This document shows, piece by piece, positions 11,527 through 51,633 of a stretch of 64,000 nucleotides of DNA. The notes under the pieces were generated by a model that had not been told where the DNA came from, did not search any database, and was given only the letters and a program-made list of their open reading frames with translations. Where the stretch lies: assembly GCA_051294905.1 (NCBI GenBank), contig CM119372.1:17362001-17426000 (forward strand), given 5' to 3'. The first letter of the stretch is position 1, and each line of letters starts with the position of its first letter. This DNA comes from Botryllus schlosseri. Taxonomy: Eukaryota. Made by a program: the position numbers and the translations under genes.

Positions 11527-12629
11527 TTAGTCGGACATATCATCAATAAGTTCGTGCTCATGATCATTGTCGCTGTGCTCTGCTTGGGATTTTCGCACGA
11601 CGTCTGCACGCTCATCTAAAAATAAACCGTGGTGAGAGCCCGATTCGAACACGTTAGCGGAAAAGGGTGTTGACTTGTTATCGACCCATGAAAAAACATA
11701 CGGAATAATGCGTACACCTTTACTGGTCATACCTGGTTGCATATCAGCCAATTCGTCCAAAGATGCGATCATCTCACTGACGTCTTCCTCAGGAAATCTT
11801 AATGTCAAATCGTCCTGCAGGAGCTGCATGTACTCATTGTAGGCTTCGTGATCCTGCACAGGAATCCGAAATAGTTTTTTTTCGCTGCTGTAGGCTACTT
11901 ATTTGAGCTGATTAGTTCAACTCTCGTCAGTATGCAACTTACTTCAGATTTCAGATTCGCTATTTCGTTGATGTGCGATTCCGCGTCTTTACCCATTGCT
12001 ACTGTGGCTCCTACGGTAGCTGCAGTGTTGATAAACGGCCTGCAATATATGTGAAGCAAGTTATAAAAAGTCTAGCGTTCTTTTTTATTCCTATTGTACG
12101 ATGTGAAGCGTATCGATCGATGATTGTAATAATTTTACACCAGGCCGTTACATTCGTTGTAGAATCCTTTCCTGTCGACTTACAACACGAGCCACATTCG
12201 CACTCGTTTTTTTTTGCACAACTTATTTGCAGCTTGAGTGACAATGAGGATTTAGTAGAAAGAAACCTTGAACTCTTCACCTAAGATTCTATATTTCACA
12301 TCGGTCGTAATAAAGTCCACGGCCCATTCGAGTTACGGTATGTTTTTGACGTGGAAGGGCATGGTACATTCGAGTGATTTTGGATGTTACTGCGTAATGA
12401 CTAGAAGGATTAAAAAGAGATTGCTGACGCACATCGATTTTACTCACGAGTGTTTGTTGTAAAACTTGTACGCTCCTTTAGCAGCTTTTCCCACCGCTTT
12501 CCCTACTTTCCTCACCCATCGCCGTCTCCTTCTGCTGCTGCTTCTCCTTCTCCTTCTACCCCAAGCATCCCCATCCGGAATCAAGAGTAGAATCACCACC
12601 AAAATCGTAAGCGAAACAACAAATTTCAT
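11527..12629 (-). CDS. Styelin-like cationic antimicrobial peptide precursor, gene A (162 aa, 4 coding exons)
   Basis: Coding exons 12629-12448, 12039-11943, 11853-11733, 11615-11527, all GT-AG, phases 2/0/1. Joined ORF: MKFVVSLTILVVILLLIPDGDA-WGRRRRRSSSRRRRRWVRKVGKAVGKAAKGAYKFYNKHSPFINTAATVGATVAM-GK-DAESHINEIANLKSE-DHEAYNEYMQLLQDDLTLRFPEEDVSEMIASLDELADMQP-DERADVVRKSQAEHSDNDHEHELIDDMSD*. Signal/cationic/acidic layout and KFYNKH motif resemble styelins. AATAAA on - strand at 11426-11421. Confidence 0.9.
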
Positions 12630-12832
12630 CTGAAACGAAGCAGATGAAGTTTATACGTCATCATATAATACTAACTTGATTAATATCTGGCTCTTCTATA
12701 TTTTATTTGAAAGTGCAAACCCATTTTCCGGAATCCGATACGACGGTTGGCCACCCGCCATGCATAATTTATTCACGACCACACGAGATCAAAAAACAAT
12801 GAGATTTGCAATGATATGCATACTGCTTACTG

Positions 12833-47944: not shown

Positions 47945-50900
47945 ATGAGAATTACTCTTTCGTTAACGTTGCTCGTCATCCTCGCGCTTACTGTGGACAA
48001 TGGTGGCGCTTGGTGGGGAAGAAGGAGGAGGAGGCGGAGGAGTGGAAAACGTGGTGGCGGATTTATCAAGAAGGTCTGGAATTTCGGCAAAAAAGTCTGG
48101 AGTAAGCATGGGCAAGTAAAACTTGATAGTTTGGCCATCTCCAATATCTTAGCGTATATGGACGTTTTGTATGATTAGTAGCTCACCCGTGTACAACAAC
48201 GTAGCTTAAAAACCATGCGTGACAGCGTTGATCCGAGATTGGGATACAGTGAAAATCGCAAGCGCCACGTATAATTGCGAGATACACCATTACAACACCG
48301 CTATTGACATCGCTTTATGAGAATTGTTTCTCCTCACCGCACGTGATCCATGTAAGCGGTGCCGTGAAAAACACTAGAAGAGGGCCGTGTGCAAGTCGGT
48401 AAATATGGAATCATAATGAAAATATCGACCAGGTGTAAAAGAACCAATGTAGTCGAAAAACCTTAAAGATTAGAACTTGAGCCCAACCGAATATTGGTGC
48501 ACCAATAATATCGAGTCGTTATCACACATTGAAATCATTATCGGTATCGACCATTGCAGGTGAAAAATATCGGCAATTTTCGTGACGTCACACCATGGGA
48601 ATAGAAAGTCAGAAAACTATATAATCCTTGAACGATAGACCGGAGATATTGCTATATTTCGTACAGCTGACACTTTCATGGTGTCCAGACGCGACCTTTA
48701 GTTTATTTTATGTTCGGGTATGGCAATGGCTGTAAAGCTGTTCAAATGAATGCTCTGAAGTTTTGAAAATGCCCCTTTAGAGGTAGATTGCACCTCTATT
48801 GAATATTGGCTGAATATGTCGGGGTTATCGGGGGAGGTGTTAGCAGAGGTGGTCAAAGTAGTCAAGAGAACTACTCAAGTAGAAGTAAAAGTAGCGATGA
48901 AAAAGTTTACTCAAGTACGAGTAGAAGTACTTTTTCCATAGGCAACCTAAAACTACTTGAAGTAAAAGTAGAATTGACTGACTTTAAATCTACTCAAGTA
49001 TGTAACTAGTTTTGAAAACGATCGTAATTCGTTCGCATGGATTGTCAAAAGCTGCAAATTGAGCTAGTGAAAGGTGCAGAGCTTGATTCATATTGATGCA
49101 TACCAGGACATAAGCATTCGTCCACATCACGGGATGAAAATGATAGTATTGATATGGAAATGCGACACCAATCCTTTGTTTAGAAAATATCATGGTATGG
49201 TGCCCTCTCCCACATTATAAGGCCCGTAAGTTTAGTAGAAGGGCAATACGGAGAAGTTGTATCAGATGCGGTGTAAACACCTTGCGCGATTAGTAAACAT
49301 TAATAAAAAATATGGTGGATCGTAAAAATGCCATATTATGTAGCTTTATTTCCAGAAATTAAAAGCATTACTTCACTTGCTTTTATGCTTCAACATGTAA
49401 ATTCTCCAGACAAAAGAACTGAAACTAATTGCTGCGAATTGAACGAGAAATACCAATATACTACTTCAAAAAAGCGGGAAATATTGTTTGCGATTCTGCA
49501 TGTTTTTTCTATCCTTTATTTGAAGACATTTATAGAGGAATCAGTTCGTAATTTTTGTACTCGCTTTTTCTAATCATTGTCATTGTACGCTTATAGTCGA
49601 ATTGATTGGTTGATTACTCTTTAATTGTATATTCGCTATTGCTATAAATTGCCCTTGTTACTGTTGTCTCGCTCTTCATTCAATCGAGCACTGTTGCAAA
49701 TCTCGCTTGCATTAGCATTTTAGTATTCTCAAATGAAAACCTAATTAACATTGTTTATTATTCGATTTGGGTTGCTTGATTTTGATTGAATACAAGACTG
49801 ATACACAAGGTTTGCAGAGTCCAGCTGCAGATTCAGCTGAGCAGACAGGATTCGACGCCTGAAGAATCGGCACTCATTGGAGTGTTGCGTCGACAAAATG
49901 TATTTCATGTCTTTTGTCGTGACAATTTCAACGGCGGTCTGCTAAAACAGGTCAAACGCTCATAAAAGTCAAAGCCCACTTTCCAGATTTGAACACGCCA
50001 TGGACTGCTAGATTGCGATATGATGGGTAAATGCTAGATTGCGAAACAGTAGTTTCAAATGTGATGATGGGCTGTGATGAAATATGTCATATGGGCGAAA
50101 ATGCGGTGCGAAGGGAACCACGCAACCTGCTACCTAAATAATATTCACTTTCGTGAAAACATATTTGTAACTCCATATCTACTTTGTGTGAAGCGCGACG
50201 GAAATTCTGGGTTTGAATTAAATTTTCTTAAAACTGAAAGCTAGAACTACGGGAAAACCACCCAAGAATTCCCCGCAGTTTCTCTTTCAATTGAGGGGTT
50301 ACACTACTTCTACTTGACAAACTGAAAGTAAGTAAGTAGATCACAAAATATTACGAGGTAGAAGTAGAAGTAGAGAAAACTCTATCTACTTGAGTAAGTA
50401 CCAGAAGTAGAGTAAAACTACTTGAGTACTTCGAAAAAGTAGAAGTATTTCGTTACTGACCAGTGACCACTTCTGGGTTTGTTTCTTTGTTTTTGGGGTA
50501 CTCATGGTGTTTGTCGACTACTATGGTCATTTACACCAGGCCGATATTCGTCTTATTTTCCGTAACTGCCGACTTATAGCACGGCCCACCTCTAGGCTTT
50601 TGTAAGACACCGCTGACGCGGATGAGGTGGCGAGGAGGAGCCTAGGTAAACCTCCAACACTTAGGTATCGGAATTCGGACCACTTCTGGGTGTTAGATAT
50701 CGTTTTTATCGGTGTCGGCCCAAAATCCAATATCGGCCGGGCTCTAATCGTGACAAACGTCACAGCACCTCTATCGCTTTATGAGAATTGTAGCATCGTC
50801 ATCGTGGCATGAATAACTTGTGGTAATATTTGAAAAACGGAATGCATATGCTCTGGTGCGCTAATACTTCTGATATGCGATAGGCACCAAAACAGTGTGT

Positions 50901-51633
50901 GCGTGATCAAAAAAATGAAAAAACCCACACTGCCTGATAAAAATGGATAACAAACGGTAAATATTTCAGGCATTGGATAGGACCTGCCGCGAAGTCGATA
51001 TTTGGAAGGAAGGATACGATGGTGAAGTTGAATGCTCTGAAAACGAATGTAGGTTTACCAAGATATATTGTGCTGTGTCACACCTGGCGCGCAGATACTT
51101 CGCTACACTGGAAATTATACTTTCTTCTATGTCACAGGACATACAATCGTACGTGGAGTTTATGCAGCTTCTGAAGGAAGACATGGAAGAGAGATTCCCG
51201 GAAGAGGACGTGCAAAGCGTCATGGAAATGTGGGATGACATCGCCGACATGCAAGAAGGTATATATGCCATTGCATTTATATGGGTTCATTAATACGGCT
51301 GATGATTCGAATTTGAAACGAATATCAGTCGCAGCGATTCTCGTCGATATAAAAACGACTAATATATTCATACGTAACAAAAACAGAATATTTGCTGCTG
51401 ACACACGACAGGAGTAATCTATATGGGTGCAAACTACTAACTCGCTTGTTAGCGTTTACTTTTTATTGAAAGTCACCGCTGCCAACGTCCAGTCATGTAA
51501 TTCCATTAATGTTTTAGACGAGTTTGATTTGATCGATGATGTCGACGACAACGAAAGCAGTGACGACGGAGTGTTCAGCTCTGAGATTTTGAGCGATTTG
51601 AGCAAGAGAGTCAAGACGCTGAACTTGGAATAA
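47945..51633 (+). CDS. Styelin-like cationic antimicrobial peptide precursor, gene C (160 aa, 4 coding exons, one GC-AG intron)
   Basis: Coding exons 47945-48111, 50970-51048, 51138-51258, 51518-51633, phases 2/0/1; first donor is GG|GCAAGT. Joined ORF: MRITLSLTLLVILALTVDNGGA-WWGRRRRRRRSGKRGGGFIKKVWNFGKKVWSKHGHWIGPAAKSIF-GRK-DTMVKLNALKTN-DIQSYVEFMQLLKEDMEERFPEEDVQSVMEMWDDIADMQE-DEFDLIDDVDDNESSDDGVFSSEILSDLSKRVKTLNLE*. Confidence 0.88.
48844..50688 (+). mobile_element. CAGAGGTGGTC MITE in intron 2 of gene C, with a SINE inserted at its right TIR
   Basis: TSD GGTGTTAG at 48836-48843 and 50689-50696. Confidence 0.85.
50478..50677 (-). mobile_element. 5'-truncated SINE with 13-bp TSD
   Basis: GACCACTTCTGGG duplicated at 50465-50477 and 50678-50690; body matches 24021-24300 family. 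Confidence 0.85.

Follow-up and report, generated by a model that had tools for sequence, protein, structure and literature searches.

The stretch of Botryllus schlosseri DNA analysed here (64,000 nucleotides, contig CM119372.1 of assembly GCA_051294905.1, positions 17,362,001 to 17,426,000 of the forward strand; hereafter the window, position 1 being its first letter) carries three genes, A and B on the minus strand and C on the plus strand, which on the evidence of their sequences are paralogues of botryllin, an antimicrobial prepropeptide already described from this ascidian, and which enlarge the known botryllin family rather than found a new one. A and B are real, spliced and very highly expressed genes; C appears to be a further paralogue, with a gene model that rests on homology and needs a GC splice donor. 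Each gene has four coding exons, with intron phases 2/0/1, an ATG that is the first triplet behind the acceptor AG and a third coding exon of 121 nucleotides (nt), and the predicted precursors of A, B and C are 162, 158 and 160 residues long. For these models both strands were read and the exons joined by coordinates; all splice sites are GT-AG, with the single exception of intron 2 of C (donor gcaagt). A first-pass annotation of the window had proposed three spliced genes of this plan, and the features it listed were found at the places given, for C on condition of the GC donor. Its description of a three-gene cluster was too narrow. A fourth gene, Z (C2:17351001-17357000, minus strand, where C2 is the contig of the window), lies approximately 8-10 kb before window base 1, encodes 162 residues with a double Arg run like that of A and has an exon 4 that is 88% identical to that of A, so the cluster extends beyond the window and, as detailed below, belongs to a family of at least 17 loci.

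RNA from four sequencing runs (X1 and X2 as contigs, X22 and X24 as raw reads) was mapped on positions 11200-27500, which span A and B, and about 6% of each raw-read run was read. All eight junctions of the two genes, both non-coding first exons and both start sites were present in the RNA reads, so that every junction the first-pass annotation had predicted for A and B carries spliced reads. For gene A, the joints 11615/11733, 11853/11943, 12039/12448 and 12629/13810 were covered by 358, 390, 327 and 348 reads in X22 and by 899, 1606, 1255 and 1321 reads in X24, respectively; for gene B, the joints 22514/22583, 22703/22760, 22841/24965 and 25149/25312 were covered by 238, 171, 148 and 157 reads in X22 and by 52, 40, 22 and 8 reads in X24. 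Most of these joints recur in the contigs of X1 and X2, and the depth per read class in X22 was approximately 110-128 for A and 70-100 for B. Since such counts came from so small a share of each raw run, both genes must be very highly expressed. Loose read ends accumulate at 13865 in A (264 and 656 reads) and at 25359 in B (109 reads), and at both positions the reads continue into one identical 30-letter consensus, which we take to be the template-switching adaptor of SMART-type cDNA (complementary DNA) libraries; its presence at both sites indicates that these are the capped 5' ends of the two transcripts.

In gene A, a TATA box (TATAAA, 13890-13895, minus strand) lies 25-30 nt before the start site at 13865, and the non-coding exon 1 (13810-13865, 56 nt, confirmed by RNA) contains a nine-codon upstream open reading frame (ORF) that ends inside the exon. 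Exon 2 (12448-12629, phase 2) encodes the signal (12564-12629), a Trp-Gly-Arg5-Ser3-Arg5 head (12519-12563) and the first part of the cationic core, and exon 3 (11943-12039, phase 0) the end of the core, a Gly-Lys-Asp boundary and the start of the propiece, both exons being supported by model and RNA. Exon 4 (11733-11853, phase 1), assigned by model and homology, encodes a conserved acidic propiece domain of 40 residues and has 121 nt, as in all family members. Exon 5 (11404-11615, model and RNA contigs) encodes the acidic C-terminus with the stop codon at 11527-11529, followed by the 3' untranslated region with an AATAAA at 11421-11426 and the contig end at 11404. Intron 4 (11616-11732, 117 nt) is open in frame, and the ORF list therefore gives a single 123-residue frame (11527-11898); the RNA reads show that the intron is spliced out. 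The stop codon is polymorphic: in 20-35% of the RNA reads an A>C change at 11529 (together with G>T at 11526) turns it into Glu and so extends the protein by four residues that resemble the C-terminus of Z. A further polymorphism in the RNA reads changes Lys51 to Arg.

Gene B is organised in the same way. Its TATA box (TATAAA, 25385-25390, minus strand) lies 25-30 nt upstream of the start site at 25359, and the 48-nt non-coding exon 1 (25312-25359, confirmed by RNA) is free of ATG triplets. Model and RNA together define exon 2 (24965-25149, phase 2), with the signal (25084-25149), a Trp-Gly-Gly-Arg5 head (25060-25083) and a Lys/Val-rich amphipathic core, and exon 3 (22760-22841), with the core end, a Gly-Asp boundary and the propiece start. 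Exon 4 (22583-22703; model and homology) carries the conserved acidic propiece domain, here 60% identical to that of botryllin, and exon 5 (22327-22514; model and RNA) the acidic C-terminus with the stop codon at 22426-22428, the 3' untranslated region and an AATAAA at 22332-22337, the contigs ending at 22327. Two variant joints were seen: one between exons 3 and 4 with one additional letter (96 reads), and a minor joint 22823/24964 with 26 unmatched letters (26 reads in X22), which probably represents a divergent allele.

For gene C, exon 1 (47100-47138, plus strand, without ATG) is predicted from sequence signals, namely a TATAAG at 47070-47075 and a donor GTAAGT at 47139. Exon 2 (47945-48111) comprises the signal (47945-48010), a Trp-Trp-Gly-Arg7 head (48011-48040) and a Gly-rich linker with the core, and reaches phase 2 only with a GC donor at 48112, a choice made by homology of the junction motif with all paralogues. 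Exon 3 (50970-51048; placed by homology) would encode the core end, a Gly-Arg-Lys-Asp boundary and the propiece start, exon 4 (51138-51258; homology) the conserved acidic propiece domain, and exon 5 (51518-51633; model) the acidic C-terminus with its stop codon, which an AATAAA overlaps. As intron 2 begins with gcaagt (48112-48117), the model depends on a rare donor type; an alternative with a GT donor 10 nt upstream and an acceptor 16 nt inside exon 3 gives a protein that is eight residues shorter and lacks the family junction motif. Comparison of the three genes in their first exons and promoters revealed no likeness beyond words of 7-11 bases, so that of the common non-coding exon 1 proposed earlier the plan is shared and the sequence is not. 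An interspersed repeat of 190-300 bp, 70-87% alike among its copies, occurs in intron 2 of B, in intron 2 of C and at five further places (copies at approximately 24013-24301, 50493-50676, 54344-54627, 4623-4789, 59801-59890, 45253-45465 and 16235-16301); no repeats were found inside single introns.

Botryllin has been published as a prepropeptide of 158 residues, of which 23 form the signal and 37 the mature peptide (Franchi, Ballarin and Cima 2023, PMC9966394). According to the accessible part of that paper, it is a product of morula cells that is kept as a propeptide in granules, furin is present in these granules, epitopes of the propeptide were detected both inside the granules and along extracellular nets, and the 37-mer, in synthetic form, kills both bacteria and yeast. 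In the present genome, a botryllin quantitative PCR primer has an exact match at C11:9117417-9117435, where exon 2 and exon 4 of the family also match, and this locus has the ATG-after-acceptor start and the phases 2/0/1 and encodes a protein that is one residue off the nr entry for botryllin (P0003). A second botryllin copy lies 55 kb from the first on C11. That A, B or C might be botryllin itself was considered and rejected, as the botryllin primers give only chance matches with four mismatches in the window. The three proteins are 35%, 42% and 28% identical to P0003 (A, B and C, respectively; blastp E values 5e-25, 3e-27 and 1e-10, over 136-159 columns). They share with botryllin, within the same genome, the five-exon plan, a precursor of approximately 158 residues, the Trp-Gly-Arg5 head (Ala-Trp-Gly-Arg5 behind the signal in P0003), a cationic helical core, a Gly/Lys-Asp boundary and a long acidic propiece that includes the conserved 40-residue exon-4 domain, the acidic remainder of P0003 being 89 residues long. 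The complete gene plan (non-coding exon 1, ATG after the acceptor, phases 2/0/1, 121-nt exon 4) is present in A and B, and in C only with the GC donor, and a signal followed by Trp-Gly and at least five Arg is present in A, B, C and botryllin. They differ from it in that identity is only 28-42%, the loci are on separate chromosome-size contigs (C2 versus C11) and the cores are unrelated in detail. The primer match, the presence of a botryllin locus in this genome and the likeness in sequence and plan together identify A, B and C as paralogues of botryllin. The first-pass annotation had read them as spliced genes for styelin-like host-defence peptide precursors of a diversified ascidian family, which the homology to botryllin supports, and had suggested that they may be undescribed, which does not hold as put, since published botryllin already has the Trp-Gly-Arg5 head, the exon plan and an equally long acidic propiece.

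Three genome searches, with the exon-4 sequences of A, C and botryllin as queries, recovered the same set of at least 17 loci: four on C2 (A, B, C and Z), eight within 110 kb on C5 (one with an in-frame stop), the two botryllin copies on C11, two on C15, one on C12 and one on the small contig C181, possibly allelic to a C5 gene. All of these figures are minimum numbers. The same exon plan was seen, in semi-automatic models, at other loci wherever the fetched DNA reached, and a tree of eight full-length proteins resolved only the pair of A and Z and the botryllin pair. In the accessible part of the botryllin paper, botryllin is treated as a single gene, and its authors state that isoforms and paralogues could not be separated in the fragmented genome (PMC9966394); a cell atlas of 2026, which is accompanied by a gene-model annotation, refers in its accessible text to only "one described Botryllin paralog", on chromosome 11 (PMC13635237), and its supplements name neither botryllin nor styelin. 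Literature searches for botryllin, for styelin together with Botryllus and for the head motif returned no account of this 17-locus family.

The precursors have a uniform build. The 22-residue signals of A, B and C end in Gly-Asp-Ala, Gly-Asp-Ala and Gly-Gly-Ala, respectively (cleavage site placed by eye, using the -3/-1 rule), and are followed by the heads Trp-Gly-Arg5-Ser3-Arg5 (A), Trp-Gly-Gly-Arg5 (B) and Trp-Trp-Gly-Arg7 (C). The stretch from the signal to the boundary Gly has 54, 51 and 45 residues with 17, 19 and 15 Lys plus Arg and not one Asp or Glu, and the acidic tails have 85, 84 and 92 residues with net charges of -21, -19 and -19, leaving the pro-forms nearly neutral (net -4, 0 and -4). 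Recomputation thus returned the same lengths and Lys plus Arg counts that had been given at first pass, and every element of the build described there: the signal ending in Gly-x-Ala, Trp-Gly-poly-Arg, the acid-free Lys-rich core, the Gly and the long acidic tail. In all eight full-length precursors of the family a cationic block of +17 to +21 faces an acidic block of -19 to -25 (net -5 to 0). Counted from behind the head, the cores measure 39 (A), 43 (B) and 35 (C) residues, close to the 31-32 of styelins and the 37 of botryllin, and they are of different types: that of B is almost a pure Lys/Val helix, A has its double Arg run and a neutral Ala/Thr/Val-rich end, and C has a Gly-rich linker. 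The maximal helical hydrophobic moment over 18 residues of the core was 0.71 in A, 0.81 in B and 0.62 in C, values reached by 0, 0 and 22 of 2000 shuffled sequences. The Arg codons of the run are a mixture of AGA, AGG and CGN, so that the run is maintained at the protein level.

A styelin precursor consists of a 22-residue signal, a peptide of 31-32 residues, a Gly amidation signal and a 26-residue propiece, as given in the accessible part of PMC8659048. Styelins A-E (Styela clava; Pfam PF17562) therefore resemble the products of A, B and C in the 22-residue signal, in the cationic helical peptide with an aromatic-x-Lys-His-type motif and in the Gly before an anionic propiece, and they are peptides of haemocytes, as botryllin is a haemocyte (morula-cell) product. 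In styelins, however, the peptide stands directly behind the signal without an Arg head, whereas here a head of 8-15 residues is inserted, and the propiece has 26 residues as against 84-92 in A, B and C. The Pfam Styelin model gives botryllin 16.9 bits (E 0.0083; residues 33-63 against model positions 1-27), below its 27-bit cut-off, and a Styela clava homologue (P0008, see below) 11.3 bits, and a Pfam search with the single exons of A, B and C, as opposed to the spliced proteins, returned no match; with such scores, "styelin-like" is fair only as a description of the build together with a weak similarity. A literature search for the styelin D motif KFYYKHKYYI, quoted in the first-pass annotation, returned no paper.

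A HMMER search with a profile of 16 exon-4 peptides against 1.84 billion representative proteins matched ten at E <=0.001: botryllin (P0003, E 4e-14), a Styela clava protein (P0008), six unnamed ORF fragments and two long proteins (P0006 and P0010) with many short matching stretches, from which it follows that the full proteins A, B and C are absent from that collection. P0008 is the uncharacterized protein LOC120342944 (XP_077967195.1), 31-35% identical to A, B and C (blastp, E 8e-17 to 7e-21). This 165-residue protein has Asp-Ala followed by Trp-Gly-Arg5 at the signal boundary, a core that starts with Gly-Trp-Phe, a Gly-Asp boundary and an acidic tail; it differs in being from another genus, unnamed and unstudied. 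The same build in Styela clava indicates that the build is older than the split between Styela and Botryllus. Word-indexed protein searches returned only one unnamed fragment of 65 residues with exon 4-intron-exon 5 of A, only botryllin and one fragment (among longer proteins) with the exon-4 alignment, and only the query itself and an unrelated Haliotis protein with P0008. A fold search with the AlphaFold model of P0003 against the PDB gave 0 matches at E <=0.001; this model, built from a two-sequence alignment, has a mean predicted local distance difference test (pLDDT) score of 62.7, with a core helix from residue 32 and a pLDDT below 50 for residues 6-31.

Rates of change differ between the parts of the precursor. 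Between A and Z the ratio of nonsynonymous to synonymous rates (dN/dS) was 0.22 in the signal, 0.26 in the head, 2.05 in the core (dN 0.365, dS 0.178) and 0.79 in the propiece, and between the two botryllin copies it was 0.52, 0 (no change), 1.29 and 0.40 in the same order; on 37-40 codons, neither core ratio is significantly above 1 (p = 0.10 and 0.44, one-sided Fisher test). The regions have similar silent rates, and hence it is the amino acids of the core that change several times faster. The core evolves fast, and signal, head and propiece are kept.

Taken together, A, B and C are best explained as functional botryllin paralogues that make secreted prepropeptides of approximately 160 residues, processed in the following way. 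The signal would be cut after its small-x-small site, and the pro-form would be stored in granules of haemocytes (morula cells) with the acidic tail masking the cationic part. Masking of a cationic peptide by an anionic propiece of matching charge until cleavage is known, for example, from mammalian alpha-defensins; their propiece is N-terminal and not homologous, so that the analogy is one of mechanism only. On release, cleavage at the conserved boundary, which reads Gly-(Lys/Arg)-Asp, or Gly-Asp in the case of B and Styela clava, would remove the tail, the Gly probably donating a C-terminal amide as in styelins, and the freed amphipathic helix may then attack microbial membranes as synthetic botryllin does. 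Bromination of Trp and hydroxylation of Tyr and Lys are possible further steps. Styelins are heavily modified, with dihydroxyphenylalanine (DOPA) and hydroxylated Lys and Arg among their residues, and A, B and C have Trp, Tyr and Lys at comparable places. Styelin D carries 6-bromo-Trp at position 2 (PMC8659048, accessible part). We put the probability of this reading with its mechanism at roughly 0.6; its core claim we regard as very probable.

Several observations weigh against it, beyond the sub-threshold Pfam scores, the non-significant core ratios and the GC donor of gene C given above. The KHK motif, conserved between styelins and botryllin according to the accessible part of PMC9966394, reads K-H-S, K-Y-K and K-H-G in A, B and C. 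For A, B and C, the antimicrobial activity, the producing cells and the ends of the mature peptides are proposed by analogy with botryllin and styelins. In the accessible text of the botryllin paper, the "mature" peptide was set by alignment with styelin and not by purification, and it contains no proof that the head is removed (PMC9966394). The Trp-Gly before the Arg run is invariant, which a mere cleavage site does not explain. Finally, the negative charge of the tail offsets the positive charge only when the head is included, which fits a head retained at least in storage; a C5 paralogue whose core follows the signal immediately, with no Arg run in between, still combines a long tail with a net charge of -10, so the balance is not a strict rule.

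Whether the Trp-Gly-poly-Arg head belongs to the active peptide is the point on which readings of the family diverge most. The first-pass annotation had taken the peptides to be poly-Arg-headed. In our view the balance tips slightly towards the head being a conserved leader module in its own right, which serves as a multibasic target of a furin-type convertase and/or as a block of charge during storage. It would be trimmed off, and the active peptide would start with the Trp or Gly-Trp that follows, the arrangement of styelins and of botryllin as published. When all 37-residue segments of P0003 were compared by mass and charge, residues 33-69 gave the best fit to the 4.35 kDa and +11.2 reported for mature botryllin, and the end of this segment falls inside the antibody epitope termed "C-terminus and beyond" (PMC9966394, accessible part). 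This segment lies behind the head, indicating that the peptide tested in that work had none. The Pfam Styelin alignment of botryllin likewise begins at residue 33. Across the family, the Arg run is followed by 0-8 Gly, Ser, Lys or Arg residues and then by the Trp or Phe that occupies the styelin start position, and A, Z and one C5 gene have a second Arg run, set off from the first by a short spacer of Ser or Ser-Gly. Another C5 paralogue lacks the run altogether, its core following the signal at once.

The head also occurs on other cargo. The pattern Trp-Gly-(Arg/Ser)5 had 44 matches in the genome, as against 15 for the reversed control; among the 30 of these 44 that were fetched, 15 were pure Arg, and 13 of the 15 stood directly behind a Met and a hydrophobic stretch. 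Genes carrying the head include five near-identical tandem genes at C4:13.52-13.58 Mb, a complete acidic 70-residue ORF with five x-Tyr-Tyr-x repeats at C14:19201127-19204213, a gene related to the latter at C3:2593579-2596686 (the leaders of the two being Trp-Gly-Arg5 or Arg4 repeats), a pair on C12 at 6.91 and 7.01 Mb, and six genes for Arg-rich peptides at C2:2.24-2.53 Mb, two of which end exon 2 with the Tyr-Lys-Lys-His/Tyr motif of the family and a phase-2 donor. In the genome searches none of these genes matched the exon-4 domain. The combination of a fast-changing core, a conserved head and the same head on unrelated cargo points to a handling or cleavage module, and the picture of a poly-Arg-headed active peptide given at first pass was in that respect an assumption.

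The contrary reading, that the head stays on, would make the mature peptides the full 54, 51 and 45 residues, each an Arg-rich N-terminal tail of the cell-penetrating type joined to an amphipathic helix. It can claim that almost every family member, and Styela clava too, retains Trp-Gly with at least five Arg, that the head stretch is under purifying selection, that the propiece matches the positive charge only with the head included, as in the eight balanced precursors, and that cleavage of the head is itself a proposal. Against this, it is hard to see what an antimicrobial tail would do on cargo that is acidic, rich in Tyr or otherwise unrelated, Gly/Ser linkers and additional dibasic pairs lie between head and helix, and the styelin-homologous part begins behind the head. 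Five or more consecutive Arg in a protein of the secretory pathway form, moreover, an ideal convertase site, and on these grounds we consider retention of the head rather unlikely, if a serious competitor. The near-perfect charge balance of the eight precursors could also mean that the proteins are mainly material for granule packing or extracellular traps, block polyampholytes (+18/-20) that condense alone or with polyanions and for which killing is secondary; the very high RNA levels of A and B and the location of the botryllin propeptide epitopes noted above would suit such a role. A packing role does not lead one to expect an amphipathic helix far beyond shuffled controls or a core that evolves fastest, which is the pattern of host-defence peptides, and synthetic botryllin does kill bacteria and yeast (PMC9966394, accessible part), so that we hold this explanation to be improbable. 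Chance open frames, pseudogenes or an assembly artefact are refuted for A and B by the hundreds of spliced reads across each of their predicted junctions. Among the 17 exon-4 loci, one outside the window has an in-frame stop, and gene C is predicted by homology, but the frames are intact and the exon plan is conserved over 17 loci and in another genus, which leaves an artefact scarcely credible for the set as a whole.

Returning to the head as a leader that is removed, a wider proposal can be put forward tentatively, at clearly lower odds than the leader itself: that "small-x-Ala followed by Trp-Gly-Arg5+" is a cargo-independent leader cassette of secretory-granule proteins in styelids, a convertase-cut tag for sorting or condensation. 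On this doubtful proposal the cassette would be older than the Styela/Botryllus split, would have stayed constant while its cargo diversified, and would be carried by the botryllin family and by at least three to four unrelated types of cargo. If this were true, the leader would be a granule-targeting or processing signal of an undescribed kind. The Tyr-Tyr cargo on C14 and C3 may represent precursors of DOPA peptides or of tunichrome-like compounds, and under the same proposal might supply the phenoloxidase system of morula cells with DOPA peptides that are encoded by genes. A literature search for the head motif returned one unrelated paper only, and the shared leader is the part of these results that may be new.

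The window therefore adds three further intact botryllin paralogues, two of them very highly expressed and with exact start and splice sites, and the clustered loci, at least 17 in number, provide, for a chordate model of allorecognition and regeneration, a map of candidate defence peptides whose cores differ widely. They also pose a testable question about the conserved poly-Arg head, which classic styelins lack, which Styela clava has and which recurs on unrelated secreted proteins. For the specialist this is useful and mildly surprising; it introduces no new principle, multigene families of fast-evolving peptides being the rule in innate immunity.

Regarding the rest of the window, ARAGORN found no tRNA genes in it. 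A decayed non-LTR (long terminal repeat) retrotransposon occupies 42608-44435 on the minus strand, where one frame matches RVT_1 (E 2.2e-6, just under the cut-off) and the neighbouring frames are open and unnamed. The region between A and B at 16100-21000 consists of multi-copy repeat DNA; its summed contig depth in X1 runs into the thousands, and X22 and X24 contributed hardly any RNA reads to it.

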